Assembly (NCBI GenBank): GCA_035291665.1 | Contig: DATDRP010000006.1 | Location: 145,255 to 209,254 of the forward strand | Origin: Patescibacteria group bacterium | GTDB lineage: Bacteria; Patescibacteriota; Microgenomatia; UBA8517 | Length of the DNA stretch: 64,000 nt | Direction of reading: 5' to 3' | Shown: in pieces, positions 661-59,825 of the stretch | Numbering within the stretch: the stretch's first letter is position 1 | How the letters are laid out: every line of letters begins with the position of its first letter | Program-made: the position numbers and the translations under genes | The notes under the pieces: generated by a model | The model's database searches: none | Seen by the model: the letters and a program-made list of their open reading frames with translations, nothing else | Told to the model about the DNA's origin: nothing

Positions 661-778
661 AGTACAAAGAGAATAGTGAAAAGAAATAAGCAATAAAAAT
701 AGGCAATAAGTTGTGGGATGTGAGTAGTGGGAATTGAGTCTTAAGTATTAAGTTTTAAGTAGTTAGTATTGATATATT
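661..778 (-). repeat. Intergenic mosaic element, inverted copy (C-depleted on + strand)
   Basis: Only 4 C in 118 nt (665, 691, 704, 740). 713-733 is the exact reverse complement of 53106-53126 (21-mer TTCCCACTACTCACATCCCAC). Confidence 0.8.
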
Positions 779-3163: not shown

Positions 3164-3194
3164 GTGTCTTTAAGTATTTATATCCTATATTATT

Positions 3195-3223
3195 TTACTT
3201 CATTTGCTTGGATTTGGTATAAT
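3195..3223 (+). promoter_or_regulatory. Putative rnpB promoter (TTACTT-17 nt-TGgTATAAT)
   Basis: Extended -10 TGGTATAAT at 3215-3223. This places the predicted transcription start about 7 nt downstream, at the first base of the P1 helix (3230). Confidence 0.45.
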
Positions 3224-3229
3224 ATACAT

Positions 3230-3746
3230 GCTTTGGAGAAGGAGTGATCGCCACGTTCAGTTAACATGAACGTGGAGGAAAGTCCAGGCAGCAGTAAGAA
3301 GGGAACGGAGCGTAAGCTCCGACTGGAAGCCAGCTTAGCTGGTGAACAGCTGGTGTCTTTGGTTTGTGAAAATAAACTAAGAACCGAATCTGAATTGACA
3401 GATTTGGAGAGTCACAGAGACGATCCTTCGGTTAAACTTGAGGAATTACGACATTAATCAGCAAGTAACTTTGCGATAGATGACTAATCCTTAGGCACAT
3501 TGAAGGGGTGAAACGCTGATAATCCCACCCGCTGCAACCTCCGACTATCCCACCCTTTTTATTTTTTATAAAGTAAAAAGACAAAGCAGCTTACCTGAAA
3601 TTTATTAGGAATGATAGAAATATCAATTCAATAAAGGCGGGATGAAGCTTGAGGGCAGTCCTGATTAATTCGGGACAACTCCGATTTAATCGGAGTTAGA
3701 CAGATGATCACTTAGAAACAGAACCTGGCTTACTATTCTCCAAAGC
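3230..3746 (+). ncRNA. rnpB: RNase P RNA (bacterial type), unusually long
   Basis: Conserved GGAGGAAAGTCCAGGC (about 3274-3289), GGGGTGAAACGCTG (about 3505) and ACAGAACCTGGCTTAC (3717-3732). The P1 helix pairs CTTTGGAGAA (3231-3240) with TTCTCCAAAG (3736-3745). Confidence 0.88.
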
Positions 3747-3752
3747 CTTAAG

Positions 3753-3780
3753 AAACCCACAAGTATTTGTGGGTTTTTTC
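3753..3780 (+). terminator. Rho-independent terminator after rnpB
   Basis: AAACCCAC - loop - GTGGGTTT stem followed by a T-run. Confidence 0.7.
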
Positions 3781-3821
3781 ATGAATAATGAATAGCAAAG
3801 TTTTCACCGAAGGAGGGGTTT

Positions 3822-3843
3822 TTACTATTCTCCAAAGCCTTAA
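3822..3843 (+). repeat. Duplicate of the rnpB 3' end (copy of 3730-3751)
   Basis: Exact 22-mer TTACTATTCTCCAAAGCCTTAA occurs at 3730-3751 and 3822-3843. Both copies are followed by AAACCC and a hairpin. Confidence 0.85.
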
Positions 3844-3870
3844 AAAACCCCGATGGAGTCGGGGTTTTTT
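3844..3870 (+). terminator. Second Rho-independent terminator
   Basis: CCCCGA - TGGAG - TCGGGG stem-loop followed by TTTTTT. Confidence 0.6.
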
Positions 3871-3900
3871 AGTTGCAAGGAAGGATGTTAAAATTAAGTT

Positions 3901-4095
3901 ATGAATACATTCTTTTTCATGATTTCAATCCTCTGTTTCATGCATGCTTTGAGAGACTATCTTCAAATGAAGGGAATTAACAACTGGTTTACAGAATTCG
4001 GACATATTTGGAAAAAACCGGAATGGGAAAAATATAGTGCAGTATTTTTTTCTATTTTGGGATTGATATTGTTATTTTTCGCAATTAGAAATTAG
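3901..4095 (+). CDS. Small hypothetical membrane protein (64 aa)
   Basis: ORF with two hydrophobic segments. No recognisable family. Confidence 0.35.
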   Translation: MNTFFFMISILCFMHALRDYLQMKGINNWFTEFGHIWKKPEWEKYSAVFFSILGLILLFFAIRN

Positions 4096-4189
4096 ATCAA
4101 TTAGTAATTTTTTAGACTCGTTTATGTAATATAATAAAAACATAGCTTTACCTTTATTTAATATATGAGGTAGAAAGTGGTGCCTGCCT

Positions 4190-11297: not shown

Positions 11298-11427
11298 GGG
11301 CAGGTACATTGATATAAAGTATAGCATTTGGCATAATGGTAGAAAGAAGATGCTCAAAACTATTGTTTTGGACGTTTTGGTTTGGTTAGAAAAAATATAA
11401 TTAGGTAGTATGGTTATTTTCAAATTT

Positions 11428-11453
11428 CTTAATATCTTAGTATCTTAATATCT
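11428..11453 (+). repeat. CTTAATATC-type 26-nt repeat (partner at 1161-1186)
   Basis: CTTAATATCTTAGTATCTTAATATCT lies in the divergent intergenic region of the pilus locus. Confidence 0.65.
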
Positions 11454-23334: not shown

Positions 23335-23340
23335 GTAGAA

Positions 23341-23369
23341 AGGTTATCTTCATGAATATCATTTGTCAA
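23341..23369 (-). promoter_or_regulatory. Putative sodA promoter TTGACA-17 nt-TAACCT, 6 nt before the ATG
   Basis: Minus-strand TTGACA at 23369-23364 and TAACCT at 23346-23341, start codon at 23334. No SD. Confidence 0.35.
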
Positions 23370-23578
23370 GGCTGTTTTACCTCTTGCAATGCGGAAAAAC
23401 GTCTGATAAGATTCAATCCTTCATCGAATAGTTCCATTAATTTTTCTGCCTGAGCGTTGTTTTAATTTATGAATTTAAAAGCCGAGGAAGCATTTTATGT
23501 GGTAGCATTTTTCTCATTTTTAGCCTTCTTTCTGGTGCTTACAGGCATTGTTGGGTTTCTTATTTAAAAATCCAAAAA

Positions 23579-23755
23579 TCACCAGTTGAGGTAGATCATT
23601 ATACTCCCCGCAATCCAAATCACGACGCCAATTGAAGCTAAGGCTTTGTTGAAAAACGAAAGGATTAAAAGGGCGAAAAAGATTATCACGTGAGGTCCGT
23701 ACTTCCGCAGATTTCTGTTGACGTTGTAATTATTGAACAGGTTCTCCAAGTTCAT
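23579..23755 (-). CDS. Possible small membrane protein (58 aa, shorter than any ORF in the track)
   Basis: MNLENLFNNYNVNRNLRKYGPHVIIFFALLILSFFNKALASIGVVIWIAGSIMIYLNW has two hydrophobic helices. Confidence 0.3.
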   Translation of the reverse strand: MNLENLFNNYNVNRNLRKYGPHVIIFFALLILSFFNKALASIGVVIWIAGSIMIYLNW

Positions 23756-23867
23756 GGTTTAATAATATCATGTCTAAAAGATTAGGTGTTATATTCCATT
23801 ATTACAACAACAACAATGGTTACATTGAAGGTTGTTGGCCTTGGTTGACTATGTAATAATACAAAAT

Positions 23868-24119
23868 ATGTCGGACACAAAAATACTACAAGCGATATTG
23901 GATAGTCAAAAGGCAATAAAAGAAGAGCTTAAGGGTGATATTGGTAAGGTTGGAAAAGACATTTTACGTGTTGAGAAAAAGGTTGACCGGAATGGAGAAA
24001 GGATAGATAAACTTGGTTTGCAACTTGCACGACTGGAGGATGATGCTCCAACAGTAGAGGAATTTGATAATTTGGATAAGAGAATGGGGAAATTGGAAAA
24101 GACAGTTGCTTCAATTTAA
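23868..24119 (+). CDS. Hypothetical coiled-coil protein
   Basis: ATG at 23868 (MSDTKILQAIL...). Heptad-like charged sequence, no family. Confidence 0.45.
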   Translation: MSDTKILQAILDSQKAIKEELKGDIGKVGKDILRVEKKVDRNGERIDKLGLQLARLEDDAPTVEEFDNLDKRMGKLEKTVASI

Positions 24120-24229
24120 CTTTTGATAAATTAGGTGAATTTAGGAGTTATCTTTTGAGTTAAGATGCGTAAATCAAAAAAGGTAATTAATCCCTGCATA
24201 CTATATGTCATCTACTATATACTAAATTA

Positions 24230-50874: not shown

Positions 50875-51258
50875 ATGCAAACAGGATCTGAACTTTGTAA
50901 AATATGCCCTATTAATGAGAGCTGCAGTTCAGATCTTAACCCTGAAAGTGCAACAAAAAGGAGGCTTGTCATTAATAATCCCTGGAACTGCCGGCATCTG
51001 ACGTGTCCTGCAGGCGTTGAAGAAGCCAAAAAGGAAAAGTCGCGTTTAAGATCTAAAAATATATTTTTTGGTTATGCCTACTTTTCGTCAAAGGACAAAC
51101 CAAGTGTCAGAAGATTTGATATGAAGTTGGGTATTATCGAATCATTTCAGGATGGACAGTGGCATTCAACAGGTCAGTCAATCTATAAAAATTATATTGT
51201 TGATAGAAAAAACTATCCATATAAAAGAATCAGGAATTTCAGTGTGAAGAAAACTTAA
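50875..51258 (+). CDS. Hypothetical Cys-containing basic protein
   Basis: 127-aa ORF. N-terminal CKIC...C...C..C cysteines. No family. Confidence 0.45.
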   Translation: MQTGSELCKICPINESCSSDLNPESATKRRLVINNPWNCRHLTCPAGVEEAKKEKSRLRSKNIFFGYAYFSSKDKPSVRRFDMKLGIIESFQDGQWHSTGQSIYKNYIVDRKNYPYKRIRNFSVKKT

Positions 51259-51323
51259 AACTAAATACCCACTTCCCACAACTCATTTCCTATTTCTTTC
51301 CCCTTTTCTCTATTAGCTAATTT
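51259..51323 (+). repeat. G-depleted intergenic mosaic element (short copy)
   Basis: 1 G in 65 nt. 51278-51314 matches 59601-59637 at 33 of 37 positions. Confidence 0.8.
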
Positions 51324-51826: not shown

Positions 51827-53065
51827 ATGGACGAAGCCGGGGATAACATTACTGGAAGTCATATCTCAAGAAGAGATTTTTTGAATATGGGAGTATTGGG
51901 TTTGGCATCAATTGCTACTGGTAAAAAATTGGTGAATACCATTAATTATCTCGCTGACGCATTAGGTGATAAAGTTGAAGAATCGGGAATTAATAACAAG
52001 CTCCATGAAGTTTTGAAAATTGTTCAGGAAAATTCAAAGATGATTGTTAATTTTTCTGACAAATATGGTATCCCACCGGAAGTTTTGGCGACAGTTGTGT
52101 CTATGGAACATTTGATTATTTTAACCGGTAAAACGAAAAAAGATGGATATGCGATAGGTATTTCGGAATCAGATTCCATAAAAGGATTTACTGATTTAAT
52201 CGAGAAAGAAATTCACCCCGATAAAGCCAATATAGGATTGTGTCAAGTAAATCTTCAGGATGCAATCAATTTTGAAGACCGATTGGTTGGAAAAGATGCG
52301 TTTCCTGATGCGGATAAGCAAAAAAGAGAACAAACGACTTATGAGAGGCTGGAATCTCCTTGGTGGAACATGGTGTATTTTTCAGAAATGCTTAAAAAAG
52401 AGGCCGCTGATACCGGAAAAACTATTACAGACAAACAAGCAGCAACCCAGTTTATCAGAGAAAAATACAATGACGACTCTCATAAGTTAAAAATATTTAA
52501 TGAACTACTGGATGTATATTCAAACTTTTTTCAGGATAAGAAACCGGATGAAAAATTTAAGAGGTGTTCACTCGAAGAAGCGATAAGTGTTTGGAATGAA
52601 TACCCAGAGTATTCACATTTATTCCGAAGTGTTTGGCCTGTTGAATACTTTGTAGTTCATCATACTGCAGGTAAATATCACACTGAGTCGATAATCACAG
52701 CGGAACACATTGCCAAAGGTTTTGGTGACATTGGTTATAACGGAATTATCGGGAATGGCGAACTTACAAGCGACGGTAAATTTTATCCTGGGAGAAGTAC
52801 AAAAAAAGAAGGTGCGCATACTTTGAGCTACAACAAAAAGTCCATCGGTGTTGCTTTGGTCGGGGATTTCAATATAACTGAACCCACAACGCTACAACTG
52901 GATTCATTAAGGAAAGCCATTATTGCCAGTTCTGCAATTTATGAGATTGATCCTTTCAAAGTAGTTGGCCACAGAGAACTAAATGATACGCAGTGTCCGG
53001 GAAATAATTTTACAACTGATAAATTCAAAAGACCGGTAGATGTGGCCGCAGGGAAAATAGTATAG
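51827..53065 (+). CDS. Secreted N-acetylmuramoyl-L-alanine amidase (Amidase_2/PGRP fold) with additional N-terminal domain
   Basis: Tat-like SRRDFLNMGVLGLAS. The C-terminal FVVHHTAG...GYNGIIG...AHTLSYNKKSIGVALVGDF...GHRELNDTQCPG is amidase_2. The N-domain contains GLCQVN (SLT-like, weak). Confidence 0.8.
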   Translation: MDEAGDNITGSHISRRDFLNMGVLGLASIATGKKLVNTINYLADALGDKVEESGINNKLHEVLKIVQENSKMIVNFSDKYGIPPEVLATVVSMEHLIILTGKTKKDGYAIGISESDSIKGFTDLIEKEIHPDKANIGLCQVNLQDAINFEDRLVGKDAFPDADKQKREQTTYERLESPWWNMVYFSEMLKKEAADTGKTITDKQAATQFIREKYNDDSHKLKIFNELLDVYSNFFQDKKPDEKFKRCSLEEAISVWNEYPEYSHLFRSVWPVEYFVVHHTAGKYHTESIITAEHIAKGFGDIGYNGIIGNGELTSDGKFYPGRSTKKEGAHTLSYNKKSIGVALVGDFNITEPTTLQLDSLRKAIIASSAIYEIDPFKVVGHRELNDTQCPGNNFTTDKFKRPVDVAAGKIV

Positions 53066-53200
53066 AAAAACTTAACTCCAAATAACTTAATTTCTATTTT
53101 TCCCTTTCCCACTACTCACATCCCACTTCCCATCACCTACCCCCTACAACCTATCTCCTACCGCTTACAATCCACTTTTTATCTCCATTCATCTATATTT
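53066..53200 (+). repeat. G-depleted intergenic mosaic element
   Basis: 1 G (53163) in 135 nt. Contains the 21-mer 53106-53126 shared, inverted, with 713-733. Confidence 0.85.
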
Positions 53201-53205
53201 GTAGC

Positions 53206-53243
53206 TTTCGGATGGCGTACAATACCAGCATTATGCAGGAAAA
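53206..53243 (+). promoter_or_regulatory. 38-bp conserved 5' module, copy 1 (contains TACAAT 53218-53223 and ATG 53233)
   Basis: Identical to 53517-53554 at 34 of 38 positions. Confidence 0.6.
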
Positions 53244-53526
53244 TGAAAAACCATCAATTTGTCAACGGAACTTTATGCTGGATTGCAAGCCCGGCTGTCC
53301 TCTTTATGCTTATTCCAAGAATTCCGTTCAAACTTTGGCGGATCAACACGGAGTGACTTTTGATGAAGCAATAAAAAAGATCCGAAGTATGCGCTTTGAT
53401 CAACAAGTGCAGATTCTGGCTTTAATAAAGGGTGGTTTACAATCCGTAAAAGAGAAGAGGGGGATTGTTTTGGAATGCGATAATGAGAAAAATGGGTTAA
53501 TTTCGGACCATTTTGGTTTCGGATAG
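53233..53526 (+). CDS. Hypothetical small protein (97 aa from ATG 53233, or 104 aa from 53212)
   Basis: ORF with CQRNFMLDCKPGC. The start is chosen by analogy with the duplicated module. No family. Confidence 0.45.
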   Translation: MQENEKPSICQRNFMLDCKPGCPLYAYSKNSVQTLADQHGVTFDEAIKKIRSMRFDQQVQILALIKGGLQSVKEKRGIVLECDNEKNGLISDHFGFG

Positions 53527-53554
53527 CGTACAATACCATCATCATGCCGGAAAA
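53517..53554 (+). promoter_or_regulatory. 38-bp conserved 5' module, copy 2 (TACAAT 53529-53534, ATG 53544)
   Basis: Same TACAAT-to-ATG spacing as copy 1. Overlaps the stop codon of the upstream ORF. Confidence 0.6.
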
Positions 53555-53786
53555 GTGGTTTCGAAGGGTAGAAAATTTGGCAATTATTCCAGTAATAGGT
53601 GGTGATTTACCGGGTATGTATAGGGAGTTTCCACCTGAACTTCATGATGCTTTTGAGGAAGGTAAAAAAGCACTGGTTCCCGGTGAACAGTCTTATATAT
53701 CTATGAGGGGTCCTGTAAAGTATGGTGGTTTTGAAAGCAAAGTATTCATCGTTTCGAAGATCACTCTCGTAAAAGTTGCAGGGTGA
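53544..53786 (+). CDS. Hypothetical small protein (80 aa)
   Basis: ORF immediately after module copy 2. No family, and no similarity to the neighbouring small ORF. Confidence 0.45.
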   Translation: MPEKWFRRVENLAIIPVIGGDLPGMYREFPPELHDAFEEGKKALVPGEQSYISMRGPVKYGGFESKVFIVSKITLVKVAG

Positions 53787-53787
53787 G

Positions 53788-54029
53788 AAACTACTAAAAA
53801 CTTAAAACTGAATACTAAATACTCACAACTCACTTCCCACATCTCACTTCCCATTTCTTTTCGCTTTTCTCTATTCTCTTAATTCCTTAATTCCTATATT
53901 CCTAATTTCTTATCTTCATTTCCCACAACTCACTTCTCACTACTCATTTCCTACTTCCTACCTCCTACAACCTATAACCATTGCCCCTCTCATTTCTCAC
54001 ATCCCACATCCCATCTCTTACAACCTACC
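53788..54029 (+). repeat. G-depleted intergenic mosaic element (long copy)
   Basis: 3 G (53810, 53863, 53983) in 242 nt. 53849-53906 matches 59611-59668 at 54 of 58 positions. Confidence 0.9.
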
Positions 54030-54056
54030 GATCAGTGTTAATATACCAATATAAGT

Positions 54057-55028
54057 ATGAAGAAAATAATTGCCGCTATTTTACTATTATTAACAGCCGC
54101 ATTTGTGTTTTTCGGTTGGCAATATTTTGCTCCGGTTGGTTCATCCGAAGATCTTGTGGTTTTTGTCGTTCCGGAAAAAATGCCGGATTTTAATGTACCC
54201 GAAGAACTGTATAAGCAAAAATATATTAAAAGTTCCAAGGCCTTCCGGTTCCTTCTTGAAAATTTTGCACCGGGAGTAGAGATAAAACCCGGCGGATATA
54301 AAATAAGTCAAAACATGAATGCTTGGCAGGTTATGAAAAAGATTACAGGACAAGAGGATTTGAAATGGGTAACAATTTCTTATTGCCCCCGGAAAGAACA
54401 GGTTGGCGAGAAGCTTGCAGAAGTCTTGGGGTGGAACGACCTGAATCTAAGTGATTGGAATTCGCTCTATAAAAATACCAAACAGGAGTATTTTGAAGGA
54501 GTCTATTATCCGGATACATATCTGATTCCGGTTGACGAATCCCCATCACAAGTTGCCGGAAGATTTATAAACCGTTTCAATGAAAAGTTCGCACCTTTAT
54601 CGGAAAAGTTTATAGAAAAAAATATCAAATGGACGACAGGTCTCAAGATTGCCTCACTTATAGCCCGCGAAGCAGGAGGAACAGAGGATATGAATATAAT
54701 ATCTGCCGTAATCTGGAACCGTTTGGACGGGGGAATGCCGCTTCAGATTGATGCAACGATGCAATACACTCTCGGAAAAAATGAGGATGGCAGCTGGTGG
54801 GGAAATATTGATCTTTCAGAAAAAGATAAAGACTCGCCCTATAATAGCTATATGTATAAAGGACTTCCTCCCACTCCTATTTGCAGTCCGAATGTTAGTG
54901 CCATTGAAGCTGTTATTAACCCCGAAGAAACCGATTGTCTATTTTATCTGCATGACAAGAATAAAAATATTCATTGCGCGGTTTCCTACAAAGACCATCT
55001 GAAGAATATCCAAAAATATTTGAAGTAA
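54057..55028 (+). CDS. mltG: Endolytic murein transglycosylase MltG (YceG-like)
   Basis: N-terminal TM. YFEGVYYPDTY, ASLIAREA, VIWNRL, QIDATMQY, YNSYMYKGLPPTPICSP. Confidence 0.88.
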   Translation: MKKIIAAILLLLTAAFVFFGWQYFAPVGSSEDLVVFVVPEKMPDFNVPEELYKQKYIKSSKAFRFLLENFAPGVEIKPGGYKISQNMNAWQVMKKITGQEDLKWVTISYCPRKEQVGEKLAEVLGWNDLNLSDWNSLYKNTKQEYFEGVYYPDTYLIPVDESPSQVAGRFINRFNEKFAPLSEKFIEKNIKWTTGLKIASLIAREAGGTEDMNIISAVIWNRLDGGMPLQIDATMQYTLGKNEDGSWWGNIDLSEKDKDSPYNSYMYKGLPPTPICSPNVSAIEAVINPEETDCLFYLHDKNKNIHCAVSYKDHLKNIQKYLK

Positions 55029-55166: not shown

Positions 55167-58100
55167 TTGAGAATGCGGACGTTTTCAAGAAAGCTATCAT
55201 ATCTTCTTTGTTTTACTCTTCTTTTTTACCAACTCTCCCTTTTTTTATTCAACGATGCAAAAACCGCACAAGCAACTACGGCATCATATCAAGTGTCAAC
55301 TTCTACTGATGATGTAAACGAAGACGGCGGGACAATGAATTCAACAAGTACCAGTATTTGGGTGGGAACGGGCGGATCCACAAGCCAAAGTTACACCGGT
55401 TTCCGATTTACCAACGTAAGTATTCCCCAAGGATCAACTATTACATCTGCTTATATAGAGCTTTGGTCTATCCAAGATTCATGGATTGATACCGGTTATC
55501 AAATCGGGGCAGAAAATGTCGGCAATAGTACAACTTTCACAAGTACAACAAAGCCGTCACAACGGGCTCTGACAACCGCCGTGGTCAACTATTCATCAAG
55601 CTCCCATTGGTTAATCAACACTTGGTATCAGGATGCAAACATACCCTCAGTTATTCAGGAAGTTGTTAACCGTACTGATTGGACAAGCGGTAATGCGTTG
55701 TCGATTATTTACAAGGGAACTTCCGCAGCATGGGGTAGAAAGTATGCATCAAGCTATAACGGGAACCCATCCTATGCTCCGCGTTTAGTTGTTGCATTTG
55801 AAGCCGCAACCACGCCTAGTCCGACGCCGCCGCCGACGCCCACTCCCACTGAAACTCCGACTCCTACACCAACAGAAACACCAACTCCTACTCCTACCGA
55901 ATCTCTAACTCCGACTCCCACGGAAATCCCCACTCCCACTCCGACCGAGACGCCAACGCCAATGCCTACCCCAACAGCCTCGGTTACCCCGACACCTCAG
56001 CCACCTTCGGAATGGACGCAGCTCGGACATGACGCACAGCATTCATCGTACACGGAACAATTTGTCCCAACCCCATGGAAGTGGAAATGGTCATGGAACG
56101 GACCCGACGCAGCAGGAAATGTACGTGCGGATAAACTGAATTATCCCGGAAGCAGTGATTTTACAACTCCGGGTATCCCTCGGAATATTCAACCGGTGAC
56201 CGGTGGGGGTAAAGTATATATTGCTGCCGGAAATTTCGGTGTTTACGCCCTTAATGAGGAAGACGTAAATACTGACAGTTTTGCAGATGTTTTGTGGAAC
56301 GTAAATCCGGTTGCTGGTGGTGGAGTTAAGTCAACTCCCGCATACGATAGCGAAACTGGAGCATTATTTGTTCTTGGAACAAATGGCGTTGTTTACAAAT
56401 TGGATACCCTTAACAGCGGGATCGTGATTGGAGAATTTAATACAAATCAAAGTTATGCACCATATACAACAAGTGCTGACCGATACAATCGGGTAGCGTT
56501 GCCGACATCCCCCACACTTTCGGGAAACCGGTTATTTGTATCGATGGGACAGAAAGTTTTTGCACTGGACAAAAACAATCTTAGTAATCTTATATGGGAG
56601 TACGATGCGGGAGCAGAAGTTTATACACCGCCTGCATACTCAACTGTCAGGGATATGGTCTTTGTTGCATCTCAGGATTTGACACCCGGTCCGGATGGAA
56701 AACTTCATATTTATACGCATGCAATATCAAATTCTAATGGACTGGAATTGTGGAAGACTAGCATCACTAATATCACCGGTGTTGAAGCGGGAGACCCCAA
56801 CCCGCCTCCAAATTACACCAGCCAGGTAAGAGCGGAAGTACTTAACGGTTGGCCGGTTATTGCTGAAGAACATGGTCTGGTTTTTATCAAATTAAGACTT
56901 AATTGGAATACGATGTGGACTTGGAGTCCCTGGTCAACGAGCAATGAGACGAACCGGACGAGGCTTCTTTCCAATCCAACACAACAAGCTCTGATTGCTC
57001 TTTCAATGGATAGCGGGAGCCAACCGTTTGTTGTCAATATCGGTCACGGAGGCTATGGAGATGGATTCATCCCGATGGGACCCCAACCGGTTGTAAAGAG
57101 GTTTGCCGATGGGAGTGAAGTTGTCTATACGATGGTAAGGGGAGACAGTCAATCCGGTGTTGACGGTCGTTCGGATACCCACTTTGGGGAGTTGGTTTTG
57201 GATTCAACAACAGCAACCGGATTTGAACCGGGCTATGTCAGATGGATTGAATACGGTAATTATGGTTGGCCGGCAAATTCAAATAATGATACTCCGCCGA
57301 CAGATGAGCAGCCGAATGTATCAATGTCAGGAAACTATCTTTTCGGAGGCCACTGGGCTGTTGGGAATGCGATGGAAATCGTTGATAGGAATGCAAATTT
57401 GGGAGGCTATTCAAACCCCATCACAACAGAACCGATTCCGAATATCGCTTTAATGACAAATTCGTCAACTGTTCCGGAAGGATTTGACTCTTCACACTAT
57501 GTTTCACACAATTTTGGCATGGCAACGAATGGGGAATGGAGGGCGTTGCCTCCCGGATTTTACGTATATTGGAATCAAGGGCATCTTTATGATCAATACT
57601 GGAGCGACTACTCTACCTGGACAGTTAGTAATAATACCGTTTACTATTTGACGAATGATGGTGCACTTGTTGCTTTAGATCACAATAGTGGCAGTCCTAC
57701 ACCTACACCAACACCCAGTCCAACTGCCACGCCTACTCCCACTGAAACTCCGACTCCGATACCGACCGAGATACCAACACCTACGCCAACTGAGATTCCT
57801 ACCCCGACACCGACTGACATTCCGGCTCCGACTCCAACAGAAATACCTACTCCGACACCTACGGATTCTCCCACTCCAACGCCGACTGATACGCCCACTC
57901 CCACGGACACACCCACTCCGACACCTCCGCTAGTGATTAATATGGCTGTCATGAGCGACAGCTCTTCTGATGAGTATCGTGCAGACGACAATCGTGCCGG
58001 AGGAACTCAATGGGAGTTAACAACGCTGGCCTGGACCGAGTTATTGGAAAAATATCGCGGATTTAATTTGGGGTCTTGGGGAACGCGTGGGGAGCCAAGA

Positions 58101-59597
58101 CGGACCGGTTATGAATACAATTGGGCAAGGACAGGTGCCGAAGCAGCAGATGTAGTTTTTGCCGGCCAACATACAGGCGTTGCTTCCCAGGCACAGTCGG
58201 GTTTAGTCAATATTGTTTATTTCCAGATAGGAAACAACGATTTTGCATATTACCGAGACGGTGCAGATATATATAACGGTGCTCTTTCAGGACAGGCTTT
58301 AACCGATAAAATTAATGCAATAATTTCAAATATCTCAACTTCTCTCGATACTGTTTTGGATGCAGATCCAAACGTAAAGGTAATTCTTGGAAATATTGCA
58401 GATCCTGGACTATCACCTTATTGGGCAGCACAATTCCCTGATCCGGTAAAAAGGCAGTTGGTTACCGATGCAATAAACCAAACTAATGCGGGTATAACAA
58501 ACCTGCTTCTTACCCGGAGCAGAGTTACTTTATTTGATCAAATGGCTTTTGCAAACGAGCTTATGTCTAAGGTTGTTAATGGTAATTTGGTGATAGGCGG
58601 AGAAAATATCAGCTTAACTCAAAATGGCGATGAACCCCACCATGCAATTTTGGGAGATAATATCCATGGCGGGACAGTAATGGAAGGCTTAGTTGCCAAC
58701 GGTTTGATTCCTCTGGTAAATCAGACAACCGGATCGCAGATTCAATTATTTTCTGAAACCGAAATTTTGAATAATTCTGGTATCTTTCCCAGTCCGACTC
58801 CGACTCCCACGGTGATTCCTACTCCGACACCTACTCCGGTGTTTGAAACTCACTATATATCGGTAAATCCGGACGGAGTTATCGGAGGGGTAGCTGTTGC
58901 CGGAGAAGATATTCTCAAATTCAATACCGTAACTGGTTTGTATGAAACATACTTCGACGGTTCGGATGTTGAGCTTTCGGGAACATCGATTGATGCGTTT
59001 ACCTTTCTTCCCGGAGGCGACATGATTCTGTCTTTTTCCGGAAGCGTTTCAATAACTGGGTTGGGGACAGTCGCTTCGCAGGACTTGGTCAGGTTTACTC
59101 CGCTTTCGACAGGTAATAGTACAAGCGGATCTTTTAGTTTATATTTTGACGGATCAGATGTTGCCTTAAGCAATTCGTCGGAAAATATAGATTCAGTATC
59201 GGTTTTGGAAAATGGGGATATTCTCTTATCAACAAATGGCAGTATTTCCGTAACCGGAGTTTCAGCAAACGATGAAGATATTATCGAATTTACTCCGACT
59301 TCACTCGGTCCGGCAACTTCGGGAAGCTGGTCACTTTATTTTGATGCATCTGATGTTGGATTATCAAGTACGAGCGAAGATATCGATGCTTTGAGTATCG
59401 CGTCATCGGGAGATTTTTATCTTTCAACAAGCGGCAGCTTCAGTGTTACGGGTGTCTCCGGTCAAAATAATGATGTCTTTATCTTTGATCCGTTAACTTT
59501 GGGAGGGGATTCGTCAGGAACTTTTTCCCAGCCGATTTATTTGGACGGAAGCGCTTTCGGATTATCGGGTTTCAACGTTACGGGATACTACAAATAA
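55167..59597 (+). CDS. 1476-aa secreted multidomain protein: unassigned N-domain, PT linker, PQQ-like beta-propeller, PT linker, SGNH/GDSL-like hydrolase, PT linker, four novel ~64-aa repeats
   Basis: Signal/TM at the N-terminus (start TTG 55167 or ATG 55173). Propeller-type repeats ([62 protein letters not shown]). SGNH blocks ([22 protein letters not shown]). Confidence 0.85.
55811..56005 (+). repeat. Coding Pro/Thr linker 1 (degenerate TPTPTE codon repeats)
   Basis: [56 protein letters not shown]... Confidence 0.85.
57694..57930 (+). repeat. Coding Pro/Thr linker 2 (degenerate TPTPTE/D codon repeats)
   Basis: [79 protein letters not shown]. Confidence 0.85.
58878..59594 (+). repeat. Four tandem ~64-aa protein repeats at the C-terminus of the 1476-aa protein
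   Basis: Units begin near 58878, 59073, 59265 and 59460. Consensus: [ED]D[IL]..F.P...[22 protein letters not shown]....GD..LST.GS.SVTGVS. Confidence 0.75.
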
Positions 59598-59825
59598 CTT
59601 ACAACTCATTTCCCATTTATTTTCCCTTTTCTCTAGTCTCTTAGTTCCTTAATTCCTATATTCCTAATATCCTACCCCCTATCTCTAATAACCAATTATC
59701 AAATTCCAAATACCAAACAATAAATTTCTAATATCTAATTTCCAATAAATTTTCTCTTAGTTCCTTAATTCCTTTATTCCTGATATCCTACCTCCTATAA
59801 CCTGCAACCTATAACCATTATACCC
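59598..59825 (+). repeat. G-depleted intergenic mosaic element (long copy with internal 46-nt duplication)
   Basis: 5 G in 228 nt. 59637-59682 and 59753-59798 are identical at 43 of 46 positions. Colinear with 53849-53906 and 53957-53982. Confidence 0.9.

Follow-up and report, generated by a model that had tools for sequence, protein, structure and literature searches.

A 38-bp direct repeat at two small genes of a Woesebacteria-like bacterium, probably a junction between a gene end and a leaderless-type gene start

The locus described here comprises two small genes, ORF1 and ORF2, located in 64,000 nucleotides of DNA (the whole stretch analysed, referred to below as the window) from a Patescibacteria group bacterium (assembly GCA_035291665.1, contig DATDRP010000006.1, positions 145,255 to 209,254 of the forward strand). 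Each gene is headed by a copy of the same 38-bp module. This module is probably not a free-standing element, being read as the junction of the 3' end of ORF1 and a promoter and start region of ORF1 type. On the account considered the more probable, the two copies would represent a sigma-70-type promoter and start, present in duplicate, that yields leaderless or almost leaderless mRNAs; they would be a relic of the duplication of the ORF1 unit, with ORF2 placed on a captured start. From the repeat, its layout, the genome-wide habit of gene starts and a protein family conserved at the 5' and 3' ends of its gene, we infer promoter activity, transcription start sites and a history of duplication. 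The module copies and both genes are arranged as follows, in positions of the window.

53206 to 53243, plus strand: module copy 1, between a stretch almost free of G (G-less element E2) and ORF1. It contains TTTCGGATGG (probably what remains, no longer coding, of a 3' end of ORF1 type, with TAG turned into TGG), followed by the -10 hexamer, a spacer of 9 nt, the ATG and a further 8 coding nucleotides.
53218 to 53223, plus strand: TACAAT, putative -10 of ORF1, 9 nt before the ATG at 53233.
53233 to 53526, plus strand: ORF1, 97 aa, member of a very small family, with cysteines C10, C18, C22 and a fourth near residue 82, and a C-terminal FGxG.
53517 to 53554, plus strand: module copy 2, in which the last two codons and the stop of ORF1 (TTC GGA TAG) are followed by the -10 hexamer, a spacer of 9 nt, the start codon of ORF2 (ATG) and a further 8 coding nucleotides.
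53529 to 53534, plus strand: TACAAT, putative -10 of ORF2, 9 nt before the ATG at 53544.
53544 to 53786, plus strand: ORF2, 80 aa, with typical codon usage and a body unrelated to ORF1.

The region was read directly and the module pattern was searched across the window allowing up to 3 mismatches, with 100 shuffles as control. The two 38-mers are identical at 34 of 38 positions, as a preliminary description of this DNA had reported, the mismatches being at module positions 9, 23, 27 and 32; the chance expectation for such a pair in 64 kb is ~9e-7. Only these two copies were retrieved from the window, with none in the 100 shuffles, and no further copy was identified when ~10 kb of extra flank was added (~74 kb of this genome). 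A search for the module in the genome and its relatives had been proposed as a check, and the ~74 kb contain two copies only. Scans of genome, metagenome and viral collections also gave none, the first two collections not containing this genome; 10 metagenome matches were dismissed as chance level (25-28 of 38 positions).

The layout of the locus is direct repeat, 273 bp of unique sequence, direct repeat. The boundaries of the module are sharp and the surroundings of the two copies are otherwise dissimilar. Both copies contain TACAAT, a gap of 9 nt and ATG, the hexamer starting 15 nt 5' of the ATGs at 53233 and 53544, in agreement with the earlier reading. The genes are small, adjacent and co-oriented, with 17 nt between them, and the distance from ATG to ATG is 311 bp, exactly one ORF1 unit (97 codons, stop and 17-nt spacer). 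The nine functional nucleotides, that is the -10 box and the ATG, present no substitutions between copies, which is not significant (P = 0.32).

The identity of the module follows from its two parts. In copy 2, positions 1-10 (T TTC GGA TAG, TTTCGGATAG) are the last two codons and the stop of ORF1, so that the overlap with this stop, already pointed out in the preliminary description, places TAG at 53524-53526 inside the copy. This 3' end is collinear with that of an ORF1 homologue in a distant locus (L025), the window having TTTGGTTTCGGATAG and L025 TTTGGTGCGGGATAG. Copy 1 carries the same 10 nt ahead of ORF1, with TGG in place of TAG and no coding role. The remaining 28 nt look like the promoter and start region of the ORF1 family itself: all four loci of the family (the window and those named here L025, L026 and L027) contain TAnAATAC, 6-10 nt and ATG, and L027 reads ATG-TATAATACC-(6 nt)-ATG where the window reads ATGGCG-TACAATACC-(6 nt)-ATG. 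Because positions 1-10 belong by origin to the end of the ORF1 gene and the rest is a 5' region of ORF1 type, the module is interpreted as a gene-to-gene junction. The free-standing 5' module heading tandem cassettes with a common 5' end, as first described, is not retained, the 5' end of the module being the 3' end of ORF1.

ORF1 belongs to a very rare family. A word-seeded search of 5.8 billion protein clusters retrieved only self-matches for ORF1 and ORF2, traced to a Patescibacteria metagenome-assembled genome of Rifle aquifer groundwater. An exhaustive HMMER search with ORF1 against 1.84 billion representative proteins identified two distant homologues, P0005 and P0006 (E ~4e-5), and a follow-up profile search added a third, P0007. 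These homologues share 36-41% identity and the members of the family comprise 88-102 aa as called. Invariant in all four proteins are C10, C18, C22, an RN pair, F43, E45, A46, R51, M53, L64 and I65; the fourth cysteine near residue 82 and the C-terminal FGxG followed by the stop are present in three of the four. The family proteins begin 6-9 residues before the first cysteine, and the best alignment is obtained with ORF1 starting at 53233 and P0007 at its second ATG. The start given by NCBI for ORF1 is 53212, producing a protein of 104 aa. Given homologues of the same size, invariant cysteines and a common start position, ORF1 is, as judged from these comparisons, a real gene starting at the downstream ATG (53233).

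The codon-usage score was trained on the genes of the window, where real 90-codon segments have a mean of 0.174 (sd 0.067). ORF1 scored 0.00, below the 5th percentile and yet the best of its six frames, hence atypical; the score of ORF2 was 0.18, which is normal. Sequence identity among all public contigs of the locus is 100%, which leaves no ratio of non-synonymous to synonymous substitutions (dN/dS) to calculate. Upstream of its start the frame of ORF1 stays open over another 147 nt (53086-53232), running through G-less element E2. Without G, a sequence offers no ATG, GTG or TTG start and no TAG or TGA stop.

No homologue of ORF2 was found in the 5.8 billion protein clusters by the word-seeded search, the exhaustive HMMER search having been made with ORF1. 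The preliminary description had assigned neither protein to a recognisable family, which stands for ORF2 and has to be corrected for ORF1, with its three distant homologues. Its other statement, that the two proteins are not similar to each other, holds in every frame, and the body of ORF2 is likewise unrelated to the ORF1 family. Descent of ORF2 from ORF1 by divergence or frameshift was ruled out, as no similarity remains in any frame.

Searches for function were made with both proteins. Neither matched Pfam, PHROGs, PADLOC or NCBIfam. The matches to PDB sequences (UbiX-like, E 0.064; YebC-like, E 0.16) were dismissed as not significant, and the profile of the ORF1 family matched designed repeat proteins at chance level. 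The structure prediction proposed earlier produced poor single-sequence AlphaFold models, with predicted local distance difference test (pLDDT) values of 51 for ORF1 and 60 for ORF2, and Foldseek matches without meaning (E at least 0.07, template modelling (TM) score ~0.3). Scans of viral loci and tblastn against phages returned nothing. Homology to toxins, antitoxins, immunity or defence proteins was absent for both in the four family collections and in the PDB comparisons of sequence and fold. The pairing of both genes is not kept in the other loci: the homologue in L025 is followed by an unrelated 66-aa ORF, the one in L027 by a convergent gene, and the one in L026 by an ORF of no assigned identity cut by the contig end. 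The suggestion of a toxin/immunity pair or of small secreted effectors thus finds no backing in Pfam, PHROGs, PADLOC or NCBIfam.

The gene starts of the window were surveyed by comparing the upstream regions of 54 confident genes with 287 internal in-frame ATGs, a -10-like hexamer being scored as TA[ATC]A[AC]T located 4-12 nt before the start codon. This hexamer was identified in 17 of the 54 genes against 6 of the 287 internal ATGs (2%). A Shine-Dalgarno-like 4-mer was present upstream of a single gene out of 54, the motif being essentially absent. According to published work (PMC6028130), leaderless transcription (GeneMarkS-2 group C) is recognised by a Pribnow box located 6-10 nt ahead of the start codon. 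Because -10-like hexamers are common at the starts and Shine-Dalgarno motifs nearly absent, the TACAAT-9 nt-ATG arrangement of the module fits the usual layout of leaderless promoters in this genome. The survey also suggests widespread leaderless mRNAs in this Woesebacteria-like bacterium of the candidate phyla radiation (CPR). Together with the four loci of the ORF1 family, this habit bears out, indirectly, the duplicated promoter with a very short leader that had been proposed. The trait in common with the leaderless promoters of Mycobacterium, Deinococcus and Streptomyces is a -10 hexamer 5-11 nt before AUG with no Shine-Dalgarno, a layout present at about a third of the window genes. The differences are the host, a Woesebacteria-like CPR bacterium, the lack of a -35 or TG element in both copies, and the 34 of 38 nt common to two promoters, probably through copying and not through convergence.

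According to the proposed mechanism, transcription would start at or within ~3 nt of the start codons of ORF1 (53233) and ORF2 (53544), with no Shine-Dalgarno. The ORF1 unit would have been tandemly duplicated head to tail. The upstream ORF1 copy would then have been lost with the exception of its last 10 nt, now abutting G-less element E2, and the downstream copy would have kept its promoter, the ATG and 8 nt more, its body being replaced by the unrelated ORF2, which would run on a captured promoter and start of ORF1 type. The length of 38 bp would be the mere overlap of what survived on each side. This scheme resembles chimeric genes and promoter capture after duplication, where the 3' end of a gene is joined to its own 5' region with a period of one unit; likewise, the downstream gene here would owe its promoter, its start codon and its first 3-4 codons to another gene. 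It differs in that only 38 bp survive per junction, with no second ORF1 body, and in that a single clonal genome is available.

The module and both genes are bracketed by the G-less elements, of which the following were identified.

51250 to 51316, plus strand: element E1, its head AAAACTTAAAAC overlapping the stop of a 127-aa ORF.
53063 to 53205, plus strand: element E2, directly after the stop of an amidase gene, with head TAGAAAAACTTAA, stops in three frames within 25 nt and a 7-nt periodicity.
53787 to 54030, plus strand: element E3, after the stop of ORF2 and before the putative promoter of the YceG gene, with head AAAACTTAAAAC at 53797-53808, three-frame stops and heptamer sub-arrays.
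59595 to 59825, plus strand: element E4, after a 1476-aa gene, of the same repeat family.
700 to 770, minus strand: inverted copy, G-poor on the minus strand, with no co-oriented gene upstream.

The brackets reported earlier were confirmed, with 0 G in 53066-53162 and two in 53811-54029. E1-E4 form a single dispersed repeat family (92% identity between E3 and E4 over 64 nt, 89% between E1 and E3 over 45 nt), with 1-4% G and 28-35% C, and begin at or just after stop codons. They are patchworks of heptamer arrays, with a lag-7 autocorrelation of 0.46-0.58 against ~0.3 for other lags. Almost no start codons are present on their plus strand, and E2 and E3 open with stops in all three frames. The family occurs in four intergenic regions, apart from the inverted copy and some fragments; the four follow co-oriented genes and the copy at 700-770 is inverted. 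Fragments were observed near 1160-1195 and 11427-11452, both intergenic, with blocks such as CTCACATCCCA and TCCTAATATC. Given the inverted copy and these fragments elsewhere, the family is not confined to 51-60 kb and seems not to be strictly tied to orientation.

Known classes of comparable elements are the heptanucleotide intergenic repeats of cyanobacteria of the short tandemly repeated repetitive (STRR) type and the C-rich, G-poor Rho-utilisation (rut) regions. The G-less elements resemble them in being intergenic, 7-nt-periodic, C-rich and nearly free of G, with no G-C stems, and differ in that they are not general at the 3' flanks of the genes of this genome. For the same reason a role as general terminators was ruled out, most other 3' flanks not being depleted in G. 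E1-E4 each provide the C-rich, G-poor, unstructured RNA of at least 60-80 nt after a stop codon that is expected of a Rho-dependent terminator, and they may plausibly act as insulators of translation or transcription or as Rho-loading regions. No Rho gene was identified within the window.

The head of these elements is conserved as (A)AAAACTTAA(A)AC, at or just after stop codons. The exact 12-mer AAAACTTAAAAC is found three times in the window (51250-51261, 53067-53078 and 53797-53808), against 0.035 expected. Exact stretches of 13-14 nt match the head motif right after stop codons in L025 (744-760) and L026 (923-936), the stop of the ORF1 homologue in L026 being followed by AAAAACTTAAAAC. The motif was not found in L027.

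The neighbouring genes encode malic enzyme, a zincin-like peptidase, the amidase, YceG, VanW and YkuD, with no integrase or transposase among them. The conserved neighbour downstream of the two small genes is as follows.

54057 to 55028, plus strand: YceG/MltG gene.

The YceG of the window is nearest to those of Woesebacteria (55-69% identity), and in these nearest loci the amidase, ORF1 and ORF2 are absent upstream of YceG. In L025 the ORF1 homologue is also upstream of YceG. Because the YceG of L025 is only 32% identical to the one in the window, the ORF1-YceG neighbourhood is taken, from gene order and identity, to recur in a distant lineage. The order in L025 is ORF1 homologue, C-rich G-poor spacer, unrelated 66-aa ORF, TAGAAAAACTTAAAAAC and YceG. 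The spacer, after the stop of the homologue (405-530), has 36 C and 16 G in 126 nt, with repeats of CTCACAAC, CCCAC and ATCACT, and recalls the G-less elements of the window, though its 7-nt periodicity is weak. L026 carries no YceG for comparison.

Other observations refer to the surrounding genes. The 412-aa protein directly upstream of the small-gene pair (51827-53065) has a C-terminal Amidase_2 domain (N-acetylmuramoyl-L-alanine amidase), similar to phage endolysins; it matches the PHROG amidase with E 2e-20, has a twin-arginine-like N-terminus (SRRDFL) and is located near further genes of the cell wall, YceG, VanW and YkuD. The 1476-aa gene (55167-59597), between YceG and VanW, contains long Pro/Thr-rich tandem repeats with periods of 24 and 48 nt at 55839-55957 and 57732-57901. 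In the closest relative (L006) VanW comes directly after YceG, the gene having been either inserted here or lost there. Two regions of ~0.9-1.0 kb each, 3164-4189 and 23335-24229, have no ORF of at least 100 aa; in the former the Joint Genome Institute (JGI) calls genes of 63 and 51 aa, upstream of ATPase genes of the type IV pilus/type II secretion system (T2SS). No tRNA or Rfam family was identified in the whole window.

Several points weigh against the reading of the module as a junction left by duplication. The likeness of its 28-nt part to L027 extends over few nucleotides and was recognised post hoc. A history as a tandem array requires three units followed by two events of deletion or replacement, and the lost ORF1 copies leave no trace outside the 38 bp. 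The search covered ~74 kb of a contig of ~606 kb, and other copies of the module may exist elsewhere in the genome. Neither copy has a TTGACA-like -35 at 16-18 nt upstream or a TG extension before TACAAT, and a generic consensus promoter scan listed neither site; because of both facts, the strength and activity of these promoters are presumed from the pattern of the sequence. It is just as possible that ORF2 is translated from a transcript reading through from ORF1, copy 2 then being a relic and not a working promoter. Finally, the presence of the head motif beside ORF1 homologues in L025 and L026 is one observation that local duplication leaves unexplained.

Among the alternatives, a short ectopic gene conversion or repair patch of 38 bp with no earlier array, perhaps kept by selection as a common regulator site with ORF1, a small helical protein rich in cysteine, as the possible regulator, is considered unlikely. 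It agrees with the sharp boundaries of the repeat, with nothing else similar around, and with the identical -10 box and ATG of two adjacent and co-oriented genes. However, the lack of substitutions in these nine nucleotides is not significant, as stated above, and DNA binding by ORF1 has no support, given a model of pLDDT 51 and fold matches without meaning. In addition, a single patch transfer fails to account for both parts of the module, because neither location is native for all 38 bp, positions 1-10 being the 3' end of ORF1 and positions 11-38 an ORF1-type 5' region. Quite improbable is a recombination site, where ORF1 would be a cassette entered by site-specific or Campbell-type recombination into a series of interchangeable small genes delimited by the G-less elements and the head motif. 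The arrangement of direct repeat, unique sequence and direct repeat is compatible with such an entry, as is the finding that, between the ORF1-family gene and YceG, the window has an ORF of 80 aa and L025 one of 66 aa, the two being unrelated. In the related YceG loci that were compared, counterparts are missing for four genes (the 127-aa ORF, the amidase, ORF2 and the 1476-aa gene), each followed here by the G-less family; the head motif also follows stop codons in the distant L025 and L026. This view is opposed by the lack of integrases or transposases among the neighbouring genes, by a module without hairpin or meaningful dyad and by the lack of other copies in ~74 kb or in three collections, two of them without this genome, whose remaining ~530 kb lie outside; the junction of ORF1 ends is a simpler explanation. 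Recombination site and exchangeable cassettes, both raised in the preliminary description, were left with no recombinase, no foldable site and no third copy found. Integron cassettes (attC) are similar in their small unrelated co-oriented ORFs separated by repeated non-coding elements. Here, in contrast, there is no integrase near the locus and no attC-like imperfect inverted repeat, the ORFs have their own putative promoters, the G-less elements are unable to form G-C stems, and the repeat is at the 5' end, overlapping the previous stop codon.

A coding module is judged very improbable. Upstream starts, such as the ATG of ORF1 at 53212, would give both proteins a common N-terminal M-A-Y-N-T-x-I-M-x-E, for instance a leader or targeting peptide. 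The module is indeed in frame with both ORFs, NCBI calls ORF1 as 104 aa from 53212 and the gene call of P0007 opens with MYNTYNM. Nevertheless, copy 2 reads ATA where copy 1 has the upstream ATG, with no ATG, GTG or TTG between the previous stop of the frame (53484) and 53544, and P0005 and P0006 lack the extension, all four proteins aligning from 6-9 residues before the first cysteine. The YN pair is simply what TAYAAT encodes, and of the two ATGs of L027 only the second is preceded by a suitably spaced -10 box, TATAAT at 9 nt. Furthermore, three of the four differences between copies alter a residue or the start codon, and the identity reaches 6 nt upstream of the ATG/ATA codon. The chance of a structured regulatory RNA, or of a binding site for a small RNA or protein in both mRNAs, is minimal. 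Such a role would be in line with the coverage of both translation start regions by the module, but the 38-mers and their 68-nt contexts fold no better than shuffles (z +0.2 to +0.67), an A/C difference disrupts in copy 1 the candidate 6-bp stem of copy 2, Rfam gave no match in the window, and transcription from near the ATG would leave most of the module untranscribed. The conserved RNA suggested earlier is therefore not supported by folding or by Rfam.

Three side results are of more use than the repeat itself. Leaderless starts, apparently widespread in this genome, bear on the annotation of start codons, and the public calls of ORF1 disagree (83, 97 and 104 aa). The ORF1 family represents a very rare family of small cysteine-containing proteins, with four members from ~15 billion proteins searched. 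The parts most worth following up are the G-less 7-nt-periodic repeats and their conserved head motif. It is very unlikely, though conceivable, that small lineage-specific genes of some CPR bacteria behave as autonomous units, each with a leaderless promoter and start, a 'AAAAACTTAAAAC' head and G-less heptamer arrays free of start codons that would both stop translation and insulate transcription, and that such units are duplicated or exchanged at these limits independently of an integrase. Unless this cassette-like reading is true, the mechanism is ordinary, its importance modest and the major questions unchanged. The repeat would then be a small example of how a gene may gain a ready-made promoter and start by local duplication, in a host without ribosome-binding sites.

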